DNA from: Eubacteriales bacterium
GTDB lineage: Bacteria; Bacillota; Clostridia; Oscillospirales; CAG-272
DNA length: 64,000 nucleotides
Direction: 5' to 3'
NCBI GenBank assembly: GCA_045541375.1
Contig: JAZQJB010000144.1
Span: 87,493-151,492, forward strand
Made by a program: the position numbers and the translations under genes. Of the stretch, positions 8,266 through 47,176 are shown one piece after another; position 1 is the stretch's first letter, and every line of letters begins with the position of its first letter. The notes below the pieces were generated by a model, which saw only the letters and a list, made by a program, of their open reading frames with translations, was not told where the DNA came from and did not search any database.

Positions 8266-8634
8266 TGGTGGAGGCGAGGGGAATCGAACCCCTGTCCGAA
8301 AACCAATCCTTACGGTTTTCTACGAGTGTAGTCGGTTATTTGCATTCCCATCATACGCCGAGAACCGACGCTCTGCGTAATCAAGTATCCTTTTTATGCG
8401 TGATCGCTTCAAAGGCTAAATGGCGATTCACGTTCATCGCTACATGACGCTCGCATCCCGGGTCGCGATAATCCCGGGCGGAACGGGCGGCTCCTCAGAG
8501 CCGCGTCACTGCCGTTTAGGCAGCAAATGCTACGTTATTGTTAGCGTTTAATGTTTAAGTTGAGCCGTTTAAGAGTTGCTCAGCTCTACTCGCTTACCGT
8601 ATCTCAAAATCCCCGTCGAAACCTTTACGCCCCC
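8266..8634 (-). ncRNA. ssrA: Transfer-messenger RNA (tmRNA, one-piece)
   Basis: On the minus strand the 5' end reads GGGGGCGTAAAGGTTTCGACGGGGATTTTGAGATACGG and the 3' end reads GGTTCGATTCCCCTCGCCTCCACCA. The internal tag reading frame GCT AAC AAT AAC GTA GCA TTT GCT GCC TAA (8516-8545) encodes ANNNVAFAA. The gene lies immediately downstream of smpB. Confidence 0.93.
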
Positions 8635-37861: not shown

Positions 37862-37901
37862 TAAAAAAATTTCCCGCTTGCATGAAAAATGCAAGCGGGA
37901 A
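37862..37901 (-). terminator. Intrinsic terminator after tsf
   Basis: Minus strand: TTCCCGCTTGCAT-TTTTC-ATGCAAGCGGGAA followed by ATTTTTTT. Confidence 0.85.
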
Positions 37902-37908
37902 TACAAAA

Positions 37909-38841
37909 TTAGTTATTGCCGGTGAGCTTTGCGATCTCTTCTGCGAAGTTATCTTCTCTCTTCTCAAGTCCTTCGCCCTTCTCATAAAGAACAAAGTCAA
38001 CAACCTTGATCTCGCCGCCAAGTCTCTTGCCCTCGGTCTCGAGGTACTTGCCAACGGACATATCATCTTCCTTGAAGAAGGACTGGTCGAGGAGGCATAC
38101 GTTCTCGTAGAACTTGCCCATCTTACCGATAACGATCTTCTCGAGGATAGCGTCGGGCTTGTTAGCATTCTTAGGATCGTTCTTAAGAGCTGCAACCTGG
38201 ATGTTCTTCTCTTCCTCGATTACGCTTGCGGGAACTTCCTCGCGGCAAACGTAGGTGGGAGGAGAACCTGCTGCGATCTGGAGAGCGATGTTCTTAGCAA
38301 CTGCAGCGAACTCGTCGTTGGTAGCAACTGCCTCGTCAGCGGTGAAGCGAACGATAACACCTGCAACGCCAGCACCGTGGATGTAAGTGCTGGTGATACC
38401 CTCACGGATAACGAAACGACGGATGGTGATCTTTTCGCCGATGGTGAAGATCATTTCCTTAAGCTTAGCGTCAACGGTGATTTCAGAACCGTCGAAGTTA
38501 GCAGCGGTAAGCTCCTCAGCATTAGCGGGCTTGATAGCAATGATGGTACGGAGAAGTCCCTTAACGAACTCCTTGAATGTATCGTTCTTTGCAACGAAGT
38601 CGGTCTCAGCGTTAACCTCGATCATAGCGGAAACATTGCCTTCCTTGAGGATGTCAACAACGCCCTCAGCAGCAATTCTGCCTTCCTTCTTAGCGGCAAC
38701 AGCAAGGCCTCTCTCACGGAGAACCTTCATAGCCTTTTCCATATCGCCTTCAGCTTCAACAAGTGCCTTCTTGCACTCCATCATACCGATACCGGTCTTA
38801 GCGCGGAGAGCAGCAACGTCTTTTGCATTAATAGTAGCCAT
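37909..38841 (-). CDS. tsf: Elongation factor Ts
   Basis: 310 aa with the N-terminal UBA-like region VAALRAKTGIGMMECKKAL. RBS AAGGAG. Confidence 0.96.
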   Translation of the reverse strand: MATINAKDVAALRAKTGIGMMECKKALVEAEGDMEKAMKVLRERGLAVAAKKEGRIAAEGVVDILKEGNVSAMIEVNAETDFVAKNDTFKEFVKGLLRTIIAIKPANAEELTAANFDGSEITVDAKLKEMIFTIGEKITIRRFVIREGITSTYIHGAGVAGVIVRFTADEAVATNDEFAAVAKNIALQIAAGSPPTYVCREEVPASVIEEEKNIQVAALKNDPKNANKPDAILEKIVIGKMGKFYENVCLLDQSFFKEDDMSVGKYLETEGKRLGGEIKVVDFVLYEKGEGLEKREDNFAEEIAKLTGNN

Positions 38842-38878
38842 TTTATTACTCCTTAAAATTTAATACAGAAAGTATGGA

Positions 38879-39613
38879 TTACTCAGCGTCTGCGGACTCT
38901 GCAGCCTCTTCAGCCTCGGGAGCGAGCTGTTCGCCCTGCTTGCCTTCGATAACTGCATCAGCGAGTACGGAGGAGATGAGCTTGATAGCGCGGATAGCGT
39001 CATCATTACCGGGGATGATGTAATCTGCATCATCGGGATCACAGTTGGTATCAACGATAGCGATTACGGGAATGCCAAGCTTCTTAGCTTCCTTAACTGC
39101 GTTAGCTTCCTTCTTGGTATCAACGATGAATACTGCAGCGGGGAGTTCGGTCATGGTCTTGATACCGCCGTAGTTCTTCTCAAGGTCGATCATTTCCTTG
39201 TTAAGAGCAGCAGCTTCCTTCTTGGGGAGCATATCAAAGGTGCCATCCTCGCTCATCTTGGTGAGGGTGTTGAGTCTGTTGATGGACTTCTTGATGGTCT
39301 TGAAGTTGGTCATCATACCGCCGGGCCAACGAACGTTAACGTAGTACATACCGCATCTCTCTGCTTCTTCCTTGATGGCATCAGCAGCCTGCTTCTTGGT
39401 ACCAACGAAGAGAATGTTCTTACCGGAAGCAGCAACTTCCTTAACGTAAGCATAAGCCTCGTCGATCTTGTCTACGGTCTTTGCAAGGTGAATGATGTAA
39501 AGGCCGTTACGCTCGGTGTAGATGTACTCCGACATCTTGGGGTTCCATCTTCTGGTGTGATGTCCGAAATGGACGCCTGCTTCAAGCAGCTGTTTCATGG
39601 TGATTACTGACAT
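38879..39613 (-). CDS. rpsB: 30S ribosomal protein S2
   Basis: [18 protein letters not shown]. Start set at the ATG at 39613 with RBS AAGGAGG. The ORF-track start at 39691 lies in the leader. It has an acidic C-terminal tail. Confidence 0.96.
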
Positions 39614-39760
39614 TTTAATGTCCTCCTTAATTTGGTTTTTTCCACCGCGCTCCCTATGCTTCATCCGACCTTTTCGGCATTGAAAAGGCACCGGGATGCC
39701 AACGTAGAAGCGCGTGTGTTTTATGTTTAACGCCGCCCACCGTGAAAGCGCGGCGCAAAC
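39614..39760 (-). promoter_or_regulatory. Structured 5' UTR of rpsB-tsf (candidate r-protein autoregulatory leader)
   Basis: GC-rich helices in an AT-rich context: CGCCGC...GCGGCG, CGCGCU...AGCGCG, CAUCC...GGAUG and CCUUUUC...GAAAAGG, ending just before the RBS. Confidence 0.45.
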
Positions 39761-39766
39761 ATTGGA

Positions 39767-39795
39767 ATTATATCATATTTCTCTTCAATTGACAA
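39767..39795 (-). promoter_or_regulatory. Sigma-A promoter of rpsB-tsf
   Basis: Minus strand: TTGTCA, 17-nt spacer, TATAAT. Confidence 0.65.
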
Positions 39796-39832: not shown

Positions 39833-40129
39833 TCAATCATTTGGATTGCATTTTTTGCTCTTTTGGAATTGCATTAGGCAATCCAAGTCATTTTGAGAGA
39901 GCTTAACAAGTATGGCGTCATCCCCAATACATTCAATTCGATTCCAAGGTAACTGGAATTTGTGATCGTTTCTAAATGAAAACAACCCTGAACAACGGCA
40001 TAAAATCAAAGAGCAAAGCTGTCCGCTGCAGCTATCAAATTCGATCTCAGCAATTGTTCCCAATTTTGTGCCGTCACAGACATTGATCACGTCTTTTCGA
40101 CACAGCTCATTAAAAGATATACGGCTCAT
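39833..40129 (-). CDS. YlmC/YmxH family sporulation protein (PRC-barrel)
   Basis: 98 aa containing KDVINVCDGTKLGTIAEIEFD...LCSLIL. RBS AAAGGAGA. Confidence 0.85.
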   Translation of the reverse strand: MSRISFNELCRKDVINVCDGTKLGTIAEIEFDSCSGQLCSLILCRCSGLFSFRNDHKFQLPWNRIECIGDDAILVKLSQNDLDCLMQFQKSKKCNPND

Positions 40130-40185: not shown

Positions 40186-42843
40186 TTAAACGTGTTTGCT
40201 TGAGGAGAATGAAGACAAGCTGCCGATCAAAATCACAATAAGGATAAGGGAAACAACAGCCGCGCCAAGGATGTAAGGCAGAACACCGATATTTGGTATC
40301 GCTGAGAACACTTGCGTAGAAACTTTTGGTAAGCAAATTATAAAAGCATTTGCCAATAAAGCACTCAAAAGTATGAAGAAAAAACAATAATTGAATTTGT
40401 GTGCCCGCGTTCTGGCGTGTAATATCAAAAGAAAACCGCCAAGTGCAGCCATTTGAGCAAATAAGACGAATATCAAGGCAAAGATATTTGCATCAGCAGC
40501 AAGAATCATTTCGGTTTTGGTCAGATATCCGATCGAAAAAAGAACAACGATCGAAACGATAACAGCGCAAAAAGCAGAAAGAATAGATGTAGCGGGATCA
40601 AAGAGCTTTTGGGTTTCAGAAATAGTATTCTTGGCTTTCACAGGGATGCCTCTAAAATACGCAATTGAGAGTAATGATGCAAAATCGCAGAAGAATCCGC
40701 ATATCAATAAAGCAATCGGACTCAAAACGTTATTCACATAGCCTAAAGCAAGTGGAATCAAAACTGCCAATATTCTCAAAAAAGCAGAAAAAATCAAATA
40801 GTTTTTATATATTCCAAGCTTTAAAAAAGCCATAGAGCATGCTTGTATTGCTTTTAATGCATCAGAGAGTCCTCCGCTGCTTGGAGAAATATCCGGAACA
40901 ATGTTTAAAGCCGAGGCGATTCGCACTGAGTCAAAAGAACTGCGTGCGTGAGTGGCGAAAATATTAAAGGGCGAAACATCATGTCTGTTAGCCGAATCTT
41001 TAATAATAGGCAAAACTTTTCTCGAATTATCTGCCAAACGTTTAGAAATGGCTTGCGTACCTTTTCTGCCAAAACCGACGTAGATCTTCGTTGCCAAATT
41101 GGCGTCTGATACATCAAGACCCGCTTGCAAGTATTCGGAATTAATCGCTATATCACTGCTGTTTTTCAACAATCCGCAATTATATGCTATTTCAATATTG
41201 CGATCAGTCTCTTCTTCGAGAACAAGCACCGGATGCACACCTGCTTCAAGCAACTCTTCTCTCAGATCACCGTCACAATACGGATATTCTTCTCCGGTTG
41301 CCACGATTCCTTCAAATATCAGTTGCTTATCACGTTTATTGTATGAATAGAAAACCGACTGCTCCAGAGAGACAAAAGAGTCATATTTGTCAAAAGCTCT
41401 GCGAATTTCACCCGATTCTTTCTCGCCGAGCTTCCAAACTCCGCCTCCTTCTGTGCGAAATGCTGCACACGAGTTGAGCAAAGAGAGATCAGAAGATCTT
41501 GTAATATAGCTTATAGGAGTGCCATCTTCATCAAAATCAAAAACGCACGAGCGAGCTCCGGTTACAGGAAAATTCTTTAATACTTTTATTCGTTTACCAT
41601 TCTTACCTACGCATTGCTTTGATCCGCAAAACTCATTAATAACCTTGTCGGTAGCTGTCATAATTGACTTTGGCATACCTGCATAGAAGGGCGCGATCTG
41701 ATCAATGAAATCATTAATCTGTTGTGAGTTCAAAGAATCAAAACGGTATTGTCTGCCGCAAAAATATATACGCCTGACGAGCTTTCTTTCATCGATCAGC
41801 GTTTCCGGGCACAAAATTAATAATGTATCCGTTTGTGCCAATTCTTCTGCAGATGAAAGCTTTGTAATCTTGCTTTCTTGATGTTTTTCAAACTTTGACA
41901 TCAAAGATGAAGGCAAAAGCTCTTTAGTGACTATTGCCTCTGCGGATGATATAGAAAGCTCGCTCATCGACGTTGCAGCGAGAGTTAAAGCAAGAACAAA
42001 TACGGAAAGAAAGTCGAACGGAAGCCCTTCACCGGCTGTTTGCAAATAGATCAACAAGAGAATAAGGGGAATGACAACCGTTAATATTGCAAGCGAAAAC
42101 CTTCTGGATTTACTTAAAAATGTGCGTAAAAATACAGGGGTATCATTTTCAGGGACGATTGAAATACCGTTATAATCTCTGCAAATTACAGTATCGGTAC
42201 CAATTGCGGATACAATAGCACTTCCCTTTCCCGATATAACCATAGAACCGGCATATACCACGTTGGGACAATGAAATTCATCGGGATCACTCGTAACGTA
42301 GTCGTGGTTTTTCTGATATTTTTTATACTCTGTTCGACCGGTTATTTGATTGCTTTCTCTTTCAGCAACAAACAAAGCGGAAGAAGACACAAGCCTTGCG
42401 TCTGCAGGTATAATATCTCCTTGCGTAAAAGTGATCAGATCCCCAACTTCGACATCATAAACACTCAGTCTTGTGCTGATTCCGTTTTCGGTTACTTTTG
42501 CATTGGGAAGCAGATTCCTATAAGAATTCGATATTCTCATTGAGGATCGATAGTTGATAAAAGAACCGCAAACAAACGCAATCCCAATCAGCAGAATACC
42601 GGTCAAGCTCTCCGAGCGATCACCAAACAGAGCAGCGATCAGATAAGCAACCACCAGAAGCCAAAGAGAAGCATCGGAAGCCATTCTCTTCAAAATCATT
42701 GATGAGTCAGCAGCGGGAAGGTGAAATATCTTATTATTCTTTTTTCTCTTTCTGTCGGAAGGCAAGTTTTTTCTTCCTTGATTTATATCCGTTCCGGTTT
42801 CAAGTACAACTTTAGATATCTCATAAGTGTTCCAGTTATTCAT
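40186..42843 (-). CDS. P-type ATPase homologue with degenerate catalytic motifs (probable pseudo-enzyme)
   Basis: E1-E2 actuator-like segment VEVGDLITFTQGDIIPADARLVSS and about 10 TM helices. However, TGES reads TGRT, PEGL reads SELS, DKTGT reads CPETL, and GDGxND reads KDSANRHD. Start set at the ATG at 42843 with RBS AAAGGAGG. Confidence 0.7.
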   Translation of the reverse strand: MNNWNTYEISKVVLETGTDINQGRKNLPSDRKRKKNNKIFHLPAADSSMILKRMASDASLWLLVVAYLIAALFGDRSESLTGILLIGIAFVCGSFINYRSSMRISNSYRNLLPNAKVTENGISTRLSVYDVEVGDLITFTQGDIIPADARLVSSSALFVAERESNQITGRTEYKKYQKNHDYVTSDPDEFHCPNVVYAGSMVISGKGSAIVSAIGTDTVICRDYNGISIVPENDTPVFLRTFLSKSRRFSLAILTVVIPLILLLIYLQTAGEGLPFDFLSVFVLALTLAATSMSELSISSAEAIVTKELLPSSLMSKFEKHQESKITKLSSAEELAQTDTLLILCPETLIDERKLVRRIYFCGRQYRFDSLNSQQINDFIDQIAPFYAGMPKSIMTATDKVINEFCGSKQCVGKNGKRIKVLKNFPVTGARSCVFDFDEDGTPISYITRSSDLSLLNSCAAFRTEGGGVWKLGEKESGEIRRAFDKYDSFVSLEQSVFYSYNKRDKQLIFEGIVATGEEYPYCDGDLREELLEAGVHPVLVLEEETDRNIEIAYNCGLLKNSSDIAINSEYLQAGLDVSDANLATKIYVGFGRKGTQAISKRLADNSRKVLPIIKDSANRHDVSPFNIFATHARSSFDSVRIASALNIVPDISPSSGGLSDALKAIQACSMAFLKLGIYKNYLIFSAFLRILAVLIPLALGYVNNVLSPIALLICGFFCDFASLLSIAYFRGIPVKAKNTISETQKLFDPATSILSAFCAVIVSIVVLFSIGYLTKTEMILAADANIFALIFVLFAQMAALGGFLLILHARTRAHKFNYCFFFILLSALLANAFIICLPKVSTQVFSAIPNIGVLPYILGAAVVSLILIVILIGSLSSFSSSKHV

Positions 42844-42879
42844 AACCTTGCCTCCTTTCAAAAAATCATTTAAATAGTC

Positions 42880-45201
42880 TTAATTACATTCAACGTGCAG
42901 TGCACCTGATTTAACAGAAATATTCACACAGCTTATCTTCCCGTATATATCGGATACAATATGCTCTGCAATCGTATCTTCGATATTACGTTGAATATAT
43001 CTGCGCATATTTCTTGCACCGTATTTAACAGAATAAGATTCTGCGGCAATAAATTTGGCCGCGTTATCCGTATAAGTCATAACTATGTTCCGATCTTCGA
43101 GAACTTTCTTGAGGTCACCAAGCATAATCTTGACAATATCGCAGAAATTGCTTTCAGAGAGAGAGTTGAAAACGATCACCTCATCAACTCTGTTAATAAA
43201 CTCAGGTCGCAAAAATTCAAGCAACGCTTTTTCGATACGGTTCTTCTCTGCCTGAGTTTCAGAAGAAGCAAATCCAAGAGCAGAGGAAGAACGTCCCGAA
43301 CCGGCATTTGTGGTCATAACCACGACTGCATTTTCAAAGTTTACGGATCTTCCCTGGGCATCGGTAACTCTGCCGTCATCAAGAATCTGCAAAAGCACAT
43401 TCAGAACATCAGGGTGAGCTTTCTCGATTTCATCGAACAAAACTACAGAATAAGGTCTGCGTCTGATCTTTTCGGTCAGTTGTCCTGCCTCTTCATATCC
43501 AACATAACCGGGAGGAGAGCCGATAAGACGTGAAACAGAATGCTTTTCCATAAATTCAGACATGTCAAATCTTATCAAAGTTTCTGGTGTATTGAAAAGA
43601 TCTGCAGCAAGGACCTTAACAAGTTCTGTTTTGCCCACTCCGGTAGGTCCGGCAAATATAAAAGATACAGGCTTCCTTTTGTAAGTTATTCCGGCTCTGT
43701 TGCGCTTTATAGCGCGAGCCACAGCCGAAACGGCATCATCCTGACCAACGATTCTGGAACGCAATCTATCTTCGAGTTTATCAATAAGACGGAATTCATT
43801 TTCTTTGATAGTAGTTGCAGGTACTCCGGTCCACACTTCGATAACTGAAGCAATATCTTCGAGTGAAAGAGTTACCTTCTTACATTCCTGCTCGAGTGCA
43901 TTGAGCCTATCAGAGAGTGCCATTTCTTTGGATTTGATCTTTGCTATACGCTCATATTTCTTCTCTTCGTTCTTTTCGGTAGCTGCTTCAGCTTCTTCTC
44001 TCTCTTCTTTAAGCTTAAGGAGCTCTTCGCGAATAGAATATGATTCATTGATCGCAGAGCTCGAAAGAGAAAGAGACGCCGCAGCTTCATCAAGAAGATC
44101 TATTGCCTTATCCGGAAGATATCTGTCGGTAATATATCTCTCAGAAAGCATAACTGTTCTCAGAATCACAGACTCGGGCACAGTTATACGGTGGTAATCT
44201 TCATAATAATGCTTGATGCCTTCAAGCATCTTGGCAGCTTCTTCAACAGAAGGCTCGTTAACAGTAACGGGTTGGAATCTTCTTTCAAGAGCAGAATCCT
44301 TTTCGATATACTTTCTATACTCATTGAGCGTAGTCGCGCCTATAACGCGAATCTCGCCCCTTGAAAGCGCCGGTTTCATTATATTTGCAGCATTGGTGCT
44401 GCCCTCGCCTCCACCGGTACCTACTATGCTGTGAACCTCGTCAATTACGAGAATAATGTTTTTTGCTGCTTTAACTTCATTAATAAGTGCAAGCATTCTC
44501 TGCTCAAATTGGCCGCGGAACTGTGTACCCGCTACAATGGCTGTGAGGTCTACAAGATATAATTCCGCATCTTTAAGCCTATAAGGAACGTCACCCGATG
44601 CGATTTTTTGAGCCAAAGCTTCAGCGATCGCTGTCTTTCCAACACCCGGCTCACCGATCAGACATGGATTGTTCTTCTGTCTGCGGCAAAGAATCTGAAT
44701 AACTCTTGCAAGCTCGTTCTGACGCCCAACTATATTATCAAGTCTTCCCTTCTTTGCCATATCGGTAAGATTCTTGCAATATCTGTCAAGGATCTCTCGT
44801 TTGGGTCTGTTGTCATCAGACTTTTTCTGCGATTTGGAATCTTTATCTTTGCTGGCGCCTTTATTAGCTTCGACTTCCTTATTGCCAAACGCTTCGCTGA
44901 TGATCTTTTGAATGTTTATTGATGGAGCTCCTCCGTCATCGGGTAGAGCAGGGTTATCGTCATCTGCAAGCTCAGCAAATTCAGCCGACTCAGCAAGTTC
45001 GGCCATATTTTGCTCAAGCTCGTCCATCTGCTCGGGCGATATGCCAAATTTCTTAAGCTGATCGCCCATAATATCATCGACAGGAACGCCAAGCTCTCTT
45101 GCACACTGCAAGCAAAGACCTTCCGTCTTCTTCTCGCCGTCTTCAAGTTTTGTTACAAACACGACGGCATATCTTTTTTTACATTTTGAACATTTTACCA
45201 T
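42880..45201 (-). CDS. Clp/Hsp100 AAA+ unfoldase, ClpE-like (N-terminal zinc ribbon, two AAA+ modules)
   Basis: C4,C7...C30,C33 zinc ribbon. Walker A motifs GEPGVGKT and GPTGVGKT. A short coiled-coil middle domain and an LGF ClpP-docking loop (SALGFAS). Confidence 0.85.
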   Translation of the reverse strand: MVKCSKCKKRYAVVFVTKLEDGEKKTEGLCLQCARELGVPVDDIMGDQLKKFGISPEQMDELEQNMAELAESAEFAELADDDNPALPDDGGAPSINIQKIISEAFGNKEVEANKGASKDKDSKSQKKSDDNRPKREILDRYCKNLTDMAKKGRLDNIVGRQNELARVIQILCRRQKNNPCLIGEPGVGKTAIAEALAQKIASGDVPYRLKDAELYLVDLTAIVAGTQFRGQFEQRMLALINEVKAAKNIILVIDEVHSIVGTGGGEGSTNAANIMKPALSRGEIRVIGATTLNEYRKYIEKDSALERRFQPVTVNEPSVEEAAKMLEGIKHYYEDYHRITVPESVILRTVMLSERYITDRYLPDKAIDLLDEAAASLSLSSSAINESYSIREELLKLKEEREEAEAATEKNEEKKYERIAKIKSKEMALSDRLNALEQECKKVTLSLEDIASVIEVWTGVPATTIKENEFRLIDKLEDRLRSRIVGQDDAVSAVARAIKRNRAGITYKRKPVSFIFAGPTGVGKTELVKVLAADLFNTPETLIRFDMSEFMEKHSVSRLIGSPPGYVGYEEAGQLTEKIRRRPYSVVLFDEIEKAHPDVLNVLLQILDDGRVTDAQGRSVNFENAVVVMTTNAGSGRSSSALGFASSETQAEKNRIEKALLEFLRPEFINRVDEVIVFNSLSESNFCDIVKIMLGDLKKVLEDRNIVMTYTDNAAKFIAAESYSVKYGARNMRRYIQRNIEDTIAEHIVSDIYGKISCVNISVKSGALHVECN

Positions 45202-45230: not shown

Positions 45231-45959
45231 CTAACTGATATTTATAAATTTAATTGGTGAGAATGAACAGAAGAATTTAAAAATGAATGATCCATCTGTC
45301 AGACTATTCAGCACCTCTACGGTTTCGGGATCCATAAATCCTCTTTCAACGAATATGCTCAACGTTACACATAAAATCCATACGATCACCAAACCTTTAA
45401 TAAGTCCAAAAACGAAACCCAACAGAGTATTTAAAGTTTTAATAATCGGGATCTTTACAATAATCTTCACTACCAGACCGATTAGCCATAAAAGCAAGAC
45501 TGAGAGAAGGAATATCGAAACTATAGCGATTGCATTAGATAAAGTGTTTGAAATTGGCATAGCAACAGATTCAGCAAAAGCATACAGTTCATCAGTTGAA
45601 ATGCTGAGAGCTGATCCGAATTGAGCTGCGAGATCATTGATATCTGCTCCGCAATTTTCAACCAACGTTATAAATTCGTCGGGTAACGATTCGAATAATG
45701 CGGAAAGATTATAGCTACCGGCATTTTTCTCTATGAGCGTATCTACCACTCCGTAGGTATACTCAGAAATATACTTTAAAACAAAATTATTACAAATCCA
45801 TTCTGCCGCGATCCCGCTGAATAGATAAGCAACCGCAAAGGAACCAATAATAGTCACAGAACTCCATACAGATTCAACGAATCCGCGCTCTGTGCCAATT
45901 ATTGTAATCAGAATGAACAGTAAAACAAAAAATATGTCAATAAGGTAATTCATGTTCAC
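45231..45959 (-). CDS. cvpA: CvpA family membrane protein
   Basis: N-terminus NYLIDIFFVLLFILITIIGTERGFV and 4-5 TM helices. Confidence 0.7.
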   Translation of the reverse strand: MNMNYLIDIFFVLLFILITIIGTERGFVESVWSSVTIIGSFAVAYLFSGIAAEWICNNFVLKYISEYTYGVVDTLIEKNAGSYNLSALFESLPDEFITLVENCGADINDLAAQFGSALSISTDELYAFAESVAMPISNTLSNAIAIVSIFLLSVLLLWLIGLVVKIIVKIPIIKTLNTLLGFVFGLIKGLVIVWILCVTLSIFVERGFMDPETVEVLNSLTDGSFIFKFFCSFSPIKFINIS

Positions 45960-45967
45960 CTCAAAAA

Positions 45968-47176
45968 TTATTCTTCAATGTCAATCAACGGCGCAGATGA
46001 CTCGGTGCATAGATATAAGGTATGATCATTATAAGCCAAAAGACGACTTCCTGTGACAGGCACATCAAGCTGAATCTCTTTCTTTCCGTTGGAATTCAAG
46101 ACAAGAACGCAATCTTCAATTAGCAAACAAATGCTGTTGCCGCAAACCTCTACATCGTACACAGTAGAACCTATTTGTGTTTCATACAAAATGTCAGAAT
46201 TATCTGAAATTGAAAGTAAAGAGTATGAAATATCATGCCCCGAATCATCCAAAAGCAAAACCGCTTTATCATAAGTCAGCTCAAAGTCTGAAATCACACG
46301 TCCGTTAAAAGAAAAAGTATTGCTCTCTTTGGTATCAACGTTATAATTGATAAGCTCGTTCTTACAAACAATGAAAAAGCCGGACGAAGATATTTTGCAA
46401 GAAATCGGGAATGAAGAAATGAATTCCGCATCACAGACGGTTTTATTGTTATTGAAATCGTACAAATTTGTTTTTACAATGTAGTCAGAGTGGTTATCAG
46501 ACACTTCAACAGAAGTGATCAATATGGAATTATTATTCATATCAACATCAACAACGTATCCGGATTTATTAAAACGATTGATCAATTCAAAATCATCATT
46601 ATAAACCTCAACAGTAGAAGTATACTCATCCGATGAAGTGATCAAAGCATAGAAACCGTTTTGTGACATAGAAGCGCCACGGATCGGCTTGTCAAAAGTT
46701 TGCGAATGAACTTTAGTGAAGGAATTATAGACAAGTATATCGCAATTTCCGGAATCATAAATCAAAGCGTACTTATCAGAAGTTTCCATAACAGGATTTT
46801 TAAAAGAAAACGCATCGGAACAAGTCAAGCGACCTGTGGATGAAAATATTGAAATCCCGGAGTTACCGCTCAGAGTGAACTTATCACCGACCAAGGAATA
46901 GCTTCTTGAAGAATCCGGATTATATCGTATCGAATATACGTTGTCGTTACGCTTCTCTTCGAGCGTAAGCGAGAAATTTCGCACCAAATATTCAAGATTA
47001 TCATACGTTACAGCATCTTGACCGAGAAAAGCCGAATGAACAATGAAAAACAAAAACGCGATAAAAAACACAAAAGATGTGATCCTGAAAAGGACAGAAA
47101 CCGAGGCATAAAAATCATTGTATGCATCGTTACTGTTGTTTATATCGTTCAGTACAACTTCATTATCATATTTCAT
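45968..47176 (-). CDS. Membrane-anchored hypothetical protein, beta-rich ectodomain (DUF5711-like)
   Basis: 402 aa with a single N-terminal TM followed by repetitive beta-strand-like segments. The family guess is from memory only. Confidence 0.5.
   Translation of the reverse strand: MKYDNEVVLNDINNSNDAYNDFYASVSVLFRITSFVFFIAFLFFIVHSAFLGQDAVTYDNLEYLVRNFSLTLEEKRNDNVYSIRYNPDSSRSYSLVGDKFTLSGNSGISIFSSTGRLTCSDAFSFKNPVMETSDKYALIYDSGNCDILVYNSFTKVHSQTFDKPIRGASMSQNGFYALITSSDEYTSTVEVYNDDFELINRFNKSGYVVDVDMNNNSILITSVEVSDNHSDYIVKTNLYDFNNNKTVCDAEFISSFPISCKISSSGFFIVCKNELINYNVDTKESNTFSFNGRVISDFELTYDKAVLLLDDSGHDISYSLLSISDNSDILYETQIGSTVYDVEVCGNSICLLIEDCVLVLNSNGKKEIQLDVPVTGSRLLAYNDHTLYLCTESSAPLIDIEE

Follow-up and report, generated by a model that had tools for sequence, protein, structure and literature searches.

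A maintained, non-catalytic P2-type ATPase homologue with a charge-rebuilt ion site, encoded beside a ClpE-like unfoldase gene in Clostridia known from metagenomes

P-type ATPases are defined by the phosphorylated aspartate of the DKTGT motif. A built-in cation is a recurring principle among them, exemplified by the lysine of the H,K-ATPase and of the P4 flippases and by the arginines of AHA2 and LMCA1. In the Listeria Ca2+-ATPase LMCA1 one of the calcium sites is filled by an arginine, and the protein remains an active pump. In the P3A plasma-membrane H+-ATPases (AHA2, Pma1) an arginine in M5 lies opposite an aspartate in M6 and serves as built-in counter-ion at the transport site. Here we describe a homologue of these pumps, encoded in a stretch of 64,000 nucleotides (nt) of an Eubacteriales bacterium of the CAG-272 lineage (contig JAZQJB010000144.1, positions 87,493 to 151,492), referred to below as the window. 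The protein has 885 amino acids (aa) and is called the pseudo-pump, as it is very probably a maintained, non-catalytic member of the pump family (Table 1).

The closest precedent for such a protein is eukaryotic. In the alveolate guanylate cyclases (P4GC) a P4-ATPase module keeps its fold, the DKTGT aspartate and the actuator-domain glutamate are altered or lost in some lineages, and the module is presumed not to pump (PMC13466520). These modules descend from P4 flippases and form part of a fusion protein with a cyclase, and their loss of motifs is lineage-specific (PMC13466520). The pseudo-pump, in contrast, is bacterial, free-standing and apparently P2-derived, it carries no cyclase, its nearest relatives are P2 and P3 rather than P4 pumps, and the loss of motifs defines its whole clade. 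A family-wide review of P-type ATPases from 2023 contains none of the words searched for inactive, degenerate or non-catalytic members (PMC10654040). Literature searches on pseudoenzymes, pseudo-ATPases, P-type ATPase-like proteins, FUPA and DUF5711 gave no bacterial dead pump, and P4GC is the sole precedent found; in the literature searched, a large clade of full-length dead pumps with a charge-rebuilt ion site is undescribed.

The open reading frame (ORF) is intact and has a strong ribosome-binding site, AAAGGAGG, as stated in the initial annotation of the locus. A TTG six codons 5' of the ATG falls inside this ribosome-binding site, and comparison with orthologues shows that they start at the equivalent of the window's ATG. 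The comparison with Pfam models proposed at that stage gave PF00122 (E1-E2_ATPase) as the sole match (53.6 bits, cut-off 28.1, residues 113 to 286), spanning the actuator (A) domain and its flanking helices. No Hydrolase (PF00702), Cation_ATPase (PF13246), N-terminal or C-terminal domain was found in the Pfam scan even at E=1. The NCBIfam models for P-type ATPases of types II and III score 25 to 63 bits against cut-offs of 62 to 1005; the best is TIGR01522 (PMR1-type, 63.5 bits, cut-off 798), followed by TIGR01647 (E 3e-15), and TIGR01494 reaches 25.1 bits, below the 62.3 bits of its curated P-type ATPase score. By sequence, the nearest solved relative is LMCA1 (phmmer E 2e-14, residues 54 to 349).

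The family alignment served as input for an AlphaFold2 model, which has a mean pLDDT (predicted local distance difference test) of 85 and a pTM (predicted template modelling score) of 0.81. It comprises the A, P (phosphorylation) and N (nucleotide-binding) domains and ten transmembrane (TM) helices in the canonical P-type order, with two N-terminal helices, an A domain rich in beta strands, TM3-4, a P domain of Rossmann-like fold into which the N domain is inserted, and six C-terminal helices. Foldseek searches of the PDB aligned approximately 950 to 1050 columns of the model to SPCA1, SERCA1/2, Na,K- and H,K-ATPases, MgtA, PMCA and LMCA1, with E-values of 1e-28 to 1e-31, template modelling scores (TM-scores) up to 0.64 and identities of 13 to 17%. 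Structures in the E1 state are the best fold matches (TM-scores of 0.59 to 0.64, versus 0.41 to 0.47 for E2); the E1-like conformation is the model's choice of state, and it was set aside as evidence on the state of the protein. Profile comparison with canonical pumps by hhalign gave a probability of 100 over 833 aligned columns. The 885 aa are all accounted for by the pump fold, with no extra domain, and the C-terminus (LSSFSSSKHV) follows directly after TM10. The PF00122 match, the full-length structural matches and the profile comparison place the pseudo-pump in the P-type ATPase structural superfamily, and the P2/P3-type architecture is predicted to be fully retained, which bears out the first description of the protein as P-type in its architecture and includes the match to SERCA.

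The P2A Ca2+-ATPases (LMCA1, SERCA, SPCA/PMR1) are the nearest relatives in both sequence and fold. They share with the pseudo-pump the order of domains, the ten TM helices, the GD..PAD.R core of the A domain, the TM4 glutamate and the TM6 aspartate. Missing from the pseudo-pump are DKTGT, TGES, TGD, Lys684, GDGxND, KGAPE and the TM4 proline, and arginine and glycine stand in place of Glu771 and Asn796. A four-residue insertion after TM4 and a family-specific linker (PAExIVTKELLPSS) set it further apart from these pumps.

The register of these motifs was taken from three independent alignments: phmmer against LMCA1, MAFFT with four canonical pumps, and a profile-profile alignment by hhalign of a 48-sequence family profile with a 20-sequence canonical profile. 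Counts refer to a larger alignment of 370 full-length relatives and controls, 252 without DKTGT (the dead relatives) and 118 canonical, with residue columns in SERCA numbering. At the phosphorylation site the three alignments agree in placing LCPET on DKTGT, with Leu344 at Asp351, Cys345 at Lys352 and proline at Thr353. The initial annotation had read CPETL at 41797-41811, which is the correct translation, and had put the cysteine at the phosphorylated aspartate; this register is off by one residue, the cysteine occupying the lysine position. The Asp351 column contains proline in 92, leucine in 84 and phenylalanine in 17 of the dead relatives and aspartate in none of the 252, compared with aspartate in 118 of 118 canonical pumps.

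The other catalytic motifs are similarly degenerate. TGES reads TGRT (positions 42331-42345 translate as ITGRT), with arginine for the glutamate, and in the dead relatives the Glu183 column is not conserved (K 59, E 37, R 26, V 22). The TGD of the P domain is replaced by LEE (residues 541 to 543), as placed by MAFFT and by the large alignment, and across the dead relatives Thr625 becomes L, C or S and Gly626 becomes D, E or P. The equivalent of Lys684 is threonine. At the GDGxND hinge, Asp616 of KDSANRHD aligns with Asp703 in MAFFT and hhalign; the motif is lost beyond this residue, and in the 370-sequence alignment the register could be shifted by one position. The columns of Glu183, Thr353, Gly626, Lys684 and Asp703 are all variable in the dead relatives and conserved in the canonical pumps. 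In the N domain KGAPE reads RSSDL, glutamate occupies the Arg560 column and the Phe487 column is poorly aligned; Phe487, Lys515 and Arg560 are not retained as a set. The pseudo-pump may bind no nucleotide. A regular-expression search of the 885-aa protein found no intact DKTGT, TGES or GDGxND elsewhere, and the alignments placed no DKTGT or TGES at another site, the outcome named beforehand as fatal to the reading.

The stretch most conserved with true pumps is the beta-core of the A domain, VEVGDLITFTQGDIIPADARLVSS, recognised early on as an actuator-like segment. The G, D, D and R of its GD..P(A/C)D.R core are kept in 242 to 251 of the 252 dead relatives; in the 118 canonical pumps three of the four columns are invariant and the first aspartate is present in 99. 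The fuller form GD(I/V)(V/I)P(A/C)DxR is retained in nearly all members of the clade.

Two other motifs were considered and rejected. FRTEGGG, in the N domain, has an invariant R463 and G466 and G467 in at least 90% of the narrow family; as an explanation of the clade it was ruled out, being absent from the wider clade. GFGRKGT (41059-41079, minus strand, residues ~589-596) lies at the beta-loop-alpha of the Rossmann-like P domain and resembles a GxGxxG phosphate-binding loop, and was discarded as a nucleotide site since its second and third glycines vary in orthologues.

Judged from these alignments, the catalytic P-type apparatus is wholly lost, and the pseudo-pump cannot hold a phosphorylation site of the haloacid dehalogenase (HAD) type. 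Without phosphorylation chemistry there is therefore no E1P/E2P transport cycle, as had been claimed: the phosphorylated aspartate, the TGES glutamate, TGD, Lys684 and GDGxND are all replaced. It is extremely improbable that the protein is still an ATP-driven pump working with non-canonical catalytic residues. Such a pump would have a complete fold to build on, an acidic residue is often found near the Asp703/Asp707 columns, and there is frequently an arginine at the Lys515 column; but the HAD-type phosphotransfer motifs are gone together, and the nucleophile column holds proline, leucine or phenylalanine, with neither aspartate nor a conserved replacement in the 252 relatives. P-type catalysis without the aspartate is not known, the family being defined by it (PMC10654040). 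Having failed on both the curated model scores and the catalytic residues, the pseudo-pump should therefore not be classed among the P-type ATPase enzymes; it appears to derive from P2A-type Ca2+ pumps and to belong to their structural superfamily only.

Selection on the gene was estimated from pairwise ratios of nonsynonymous to synonymous substitution rates (dN/dS; Nei-Gojobori method, NG86) on codon alignments. The pseudo-pump genes of the window and of the orthologous locus L021 share 99% aa identity with 11 aa changes and a dN/dS of 0.22. The ratio is 0.10 for L022 and L024 (97% identity), 0.11 for both L022 and L024 against L025 (88%), and 0.14 for L026 and L027 (84%). Over eight sub-regions (N-terminus, TM1-2, A, TM3-4, P1, N, P2 and TM5-10) it ranges from 0.00 to 0.26, the A domain being the most constrained part (0.04 to 0.13) and the TM regions giving 0.04 to 0.19. 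In the window/L021 pair the neighbouring genes have values of 0.04 (clpE-like), 0.13 (cvpA) and 0.11 (DUF5711), and the constraint on the pseudo-pump is comparable to that on the last two.

A search of 5.8 billion proteins retrieved approximately 50 clusters of 850 to 904 aa, from 99% down to 28% identity and with PF00122 as their only domain, parted from the canonical pumps by a gap in E-value from 2e-75 to 2e-17. The clusters are full length and carry the same degenerate motifs, and every orthologue retrieved has an intact gene. These results already refute the reading as a decaying pseudogene or an artefact of annotation, whose probability is practically nil: the gene does diverge faster than its housekeeping neighbours, but the ORF stays open in clusters reaching 28% identity, the frame in the window is intact with dN/dS values of 0.10 to 0.22, the ribosome-binding site is strong and the AlphaFold2 model is confident. 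The view that the gene is not decaying, for which the initial annotation had advised a survey of orthologues, is thus upheld by that survey, in which the degenerate motifs are kept, dN/dS lies below 1, gene order is preserved and signs of a pseudogene are absent.

A profile search of 1.84 billion representatives at 50% identity identified 326 proteins at E<=1e-30, and among the best 150 of these there is no correctly placed DKTGT, no GDGxND and no TGES at the A-domain position. In a tree built by neighbour joining from 111 dead and 60 canonical proteins, one bipartition with a branch length of 0.56 isolates 110 of the 111 dead proteins from all canonical pumps. Distances average 2.2 among the dead proteins, compared with 1.0 among canonical pumps. 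The tree is crude and long-branch attraction could affect it; as it stands, the dead pumps appear to form a large monophyletic clade, and the pattern suggests that the motifs were lost once, long ago, and that the clade then diverged rapidly. The named sources of the clade are metagenome-assembled genomes (MAGs) labelled Eubacteriales, Clostridia or Ruminococcaceae bacterium, in which the proteins are automatically annotated as "cation-transporting P-type ATPase". These labels amount to a systematic misannotation in Clostridia MAGs from gut and rumen, and the clade can serve as a natural experiment on the capacities of a P-type fold stripped of its chemistry.

The signature of the clade lies in the columns of the former ion site, in contrast to the variable catalytic columns. 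At TM4 the PEGL motif reads SELS, where the initial annotation had located it, with the helix-breaking proline lost and the ion-site glutamate (E295) kept. The Pro308 column contains serine in 154 and proline in 8 of the 252 dead relatives (proline in 118/118 canonical pumps), and the Glu309 column contains glutamate in 189, compared with 117 of 118. In TM5 the Glu771 column, glutamate in 104 canonical pumps, is arginine in 222 and lysine in 14 dead relatives, 236 of 252 in all; the corresponding Arg690 is invariant in the narrow family. In TM6 the aspartate of Asp800 is kept in 236 of 252 dead and 115 of 118 canonical proteins, and Asp720 is invariant in the MAFFT alignment, canonical pumps included. 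The Asn796 column is glycine in 228 of 252 and asparagine in 103 of 118, respectively. Of the calcium ligands of P2A pumps the equivalents of Glu309 and Asp800 alone are kept; Glu771 is replaced by Arg, Asn796 by Gly, Thr799 by Cys and Asn768 by Ala. The old cation site thus seems to have been rebuilt and not abandoned, with a conserved constellation of Glu (TM4), Arg (TM5) and Asp (TM6), in which Arg690 may form a salt bridge with Asp720 and Glu295. The arginine of LMCA1 stands on a different helix. The pair of Arg690 and Asp720 resembles the M5 arginine and M6 aspartate of the P3A pumps, a likeness that we take as a lead only. The P3A pumps have all their catalytic motifs and transport protons, and the match of Pma1 in the PDB is weak (E 1e-3).

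The main rival to the explanation favoured below is that this charged triad serves in a sensor or as a passive route for ions or protons. The protein, its gating machinery as a pump dead, would then be a channel, a uniporter or a proton path in which the network of Glu295, Arg690 and Asp720 conducts or senses H+ or another cation, with the headpiece as gate or regulator. The most conserved columns of the clade are former ion-site positions and the catalytic columns drift, the TM regions are under purifying selection, and the palytoxin-bound channel structure of the Na,K-ATPase (9vj0) is among the Foldseek matches. Pumps can be converted to channels, and an Arg(M5)/Asp(M6) pair lies at the proton site of the P3A H+-ATPases. 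On the other hand, most coordinating groups are gone with the ligands Asn796, Thr799 and Asn768 and the TM4 proline, an arginine in the site would repel cations, and an ungated leak would be costly. We consider a conducting or sensing role of this kind rather unlikely.

The gene lies in a co-directional array, ecfA-ecfA-ecfT-truA, DUF5711, cvpA, clpE-like, pseudo-pump and ylmC/ymxH, beyond which come rpsB with its own promoter and then tsf-pyrH-frr-uppS-cdsA-dxr-rseP. Both neighbours are as first described, a ClpE-like protein with two AAA+ modules upstream and YlmC/YmxH downstream. The ClpE-like protein does not reach any of the NCBIfam equivalog cut-offs (ClpB, ClpA, ClpK and ClpG). It starts with a zinc-finger-like CxxC..CxxC segment, an acidic low-complexity linker at approximately residues 60 to 130 replaces the Clp_N repeats, and by eye the LGF tripeptide within ALGFAS resembles a ClpP-docking loop. 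In the window its stop codon is 36 nt from the pseudo-pump gene, and there is no terminator-like site in this gap. Upstream DNA is available for 16 loci, and in 15 of them a clpE-like gene immediately precedes the pump homologue, with gaps of 13 to 101 nt. The order DUF5711-cvpA-clpE-pump is identical in the close loci L001-L005, L021-L023 and L026. Among distant members, clpE is adjacent in L028 (30% identity over the best segment), L030 (22%), L031 (29%) and L032 (28%), the last with a pgsA-like gene inserted before clpE; downstream genes differ in these four loci, and the synteny of distant members is based on five loci. DUF5711 and CvpA precede the clpE-like gene in every locus that reaches that far, including L022, L026, L028, L030 and L032.

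DUF5711, cvpA, clpE-like and the dead pump form a conserved four-gene set, located just after ecfA-ecfA-ecfT-truA.

The sporulation context that the initial annotation drew from YlmC is weak, since adjacency to ylmC is lost in distant members and adjacency to clpE is kept. A sporulation-specific membrane protein acting with YlmC/YmxH is accordingly very unlikely. The ylmC-family gene is close by and remains downstream in the narrow family and in L031 only; it is no longer adjacent in L028, L029, L030 and L032, three of which (L028, L030 and L032) keep clpE, and ylmC may just hold a fixed place before rpsB. Inspection by eye of the short regions 5' of the pseudo-pump and ylmC for sigma-E, -F, -G or -K promoters revealed only CATAnnnTA at chance level, without a matching -35.

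The explanation that we favour, as a whole about as probable as its negation, is a P2-type pseudoenzyme with a self-neutralised ion site that serves as scaffold for a ClpE/CvpA/DUF5711 module. A paralogue of a Ca-pump-like P2 protein would have kept the A/P/N headpiece and the ten-helix membrane domain and lost the phosphorylation chemistry. Arg690, at the position of the calcium ligand Glu771, would face the retained Asp720 and Glu295 and act as a built-in cation, neutralising the site and keeping the helix bundle stable with no ion bound or transported. The headpiece, with the A domain as its most constrained part, would be an interaction platform, and its partner would be the ClpE-like AAA+ unfoldase encoded just upstream, for example tethered or controlled at the membrane; the CvpA and DUF5711 membrane proteins may join in this action. 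That the pseudo-pump works with the ClpE module as scaffold or regulator is, on its own, a tentative proposal that falls slightly short of an even chance, and the link to ClpE may be physical or functional. As regards the repurposed scaffold of the initial annotation, the maintained non-catalytic protein stands, and its role as channel, sensor or anchor is tentative. The proposed partners, a ClpE-like unfoldase, CvpA and DUF5711, are poorly understood, and the partnership provides a concrete, testable hypothesis.

Several observations weigh against this explanation. In the distant member L029 the gene follows hisS and not clpE, and in the other loci clpE may have stayed adjacent through inheritance of the gene order in a housekeeping stretch, from ecfA-ecfA-ecfT-truA to rpsB-tsf. 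The pseudo-pump also evolves fast: among five GTDB species representatives it is 37 to 44% identical, versus 93 to 97% for Tsf, 90 to 97% for Frr and 83 to 86% for the ClpE-like protein, and the constraint on it is therefore moderate. The arginine at the Lys515 (KGAPE) column, present in 117 of the 252 relatives, leaves some room for regulatory nucleotide binding. The contact of Arg690 with Asp720 and Glu295 is derived from homology to calcium-site positions, and the conserved charged triad in the membrane suits a proton or ion path equally well. Finally, all members of the clade come from metagenomes or MAGs.

Some distant, long members of the clade carry charged, low-complexity C-terminal tails of 160 to 390 aa, which are probably disordered. 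Among 13 long members examined, 7 have a conserved GIGYLFSEEEYEAI-like peptide at the end of the tail, within the context REF(L/S)GIGYLFSEEEYEAIMAEYN (L028, also P0314; P0308, P0309, P0312, P0318, P0167 and P0155). This peptide is suggestive of a site where a cytosolic partner docks, and the tail end may be either a docking motif or a degron; it is absent from the pseudo-pump of the window. A further, speculative and unlikely extension is that the dead-pump clade consists of membrane-embedded adaptors or sensors for a ClpE-type AAA+ unfoldase or protease, in which the Glu/Arg/Asp site would read proton-motive force, pH or an ion, retained E1/E2-like movements of the headpiece would relay the signal to the unfoldase, and a disordered tail with the GIGYLFSEEEYEAI-like end would dock in some members. 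If true, this would be a new coupling of membrane state to regulated proteolysis.

Table 1. Features of the pseudo-pump and its neighbours in the window
Feature	Position	Strand	Basis or remark
885-aa non-catalytic P2-type ATPase homologue (pseudo-pump), CDS	40186..42843	-	intact ORF
Shine-Dalgarno AAAGGAGG	42851-42858	-	sequence read directly; 7 nt 5' of ATG
A-domain beta-core VEVGDLITFTQGDIIPADARLVSS, residues 131-154	42382..42453	-	stretch most conserved with true pumps
TGRT for TGES, residues 168-171	42331..42342	-	Glu to Arg; alignments
SELS at TM4 PEGL, residues 294-297	41953..41964	-	helix-breaking Pro lost, ion-site Glu E295 kept
LCPET for DKTGT, residues 344-348	41800..41814	-	three alignments agree
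FRTEGGG, N domain, residues 462-468	41440..41460	-	narrow-family motif
LVLEE, residues 540-544, with LEE (541-543) for P-domain TGD	41212..41226	-	MAFFT and large alignment
KDSANRHD at hinge GDGxND, residues 615-622	40978..41001	-	Asp616 aligns with Asp703 (MAFFT, hhalign)
Arg690, TM5, at Ca-site Glu771	40774..40776	-	invariant in narrow family
Asp720, TM6, equivalent to Ca-site Asp800	40684..40686	-	invariant in MAFFT alignment including canonical pumps
ClpE-like double-AAA+ unfoldase	42880..45201	-	ClpB, ClpA, ClpC-type models, all below equivalog cut-offs
CvpA (Colicin_V) family membrane protein	45231..45959	-	PF02674, E 4e-20
DUF5711 protein, N-terminal TM helix and large extracytoplasmic domain	45968..47176	-	PF18975, E 3.5e-22
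YlmC/YmxH family (PRC-barrel) gene, 56 nt downstream	39833..40129	-	TIGR02888, 59.9 bits, cut-off 44.2

The window also contains several features outside the four-gene set. The rpsB gene has a strong sigma70-like promoter of its own (TTGTCA-17-TGnTATAAT, 39795-39767, minus strand) and a structured leader of approximately 150 nt within 39616-39795 (minus strand; fold z-score -3.8). Its sub-threshold Rfam matches are t44 (RF00127; 30.5 bits, E 1.7e-4) and rpsB sRNA (RF01815; 21.4 bits), and it is probably an S2 autoregulatory leader below the Rfam cut-offs. The mechanical rpsB ORF (38879-39691, minus strand) starts at a GTG at 39691 and has 270 aa, whereas its orthologues are annotated with 244 aa, so that translation probably begins at the ATG at 39613 (MSVITMKQ...). 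A tmRNA gene is located at 8266-8634 (minus strand; Rfam 163 bits), with the tag peptide ANNNVAFAA. Long antisense ORFs on the plus strand lie opposite tsf (37882-38856, 324 aa) and opposite the clpE-like gene (42961-44434), and look like shadow ORFs.

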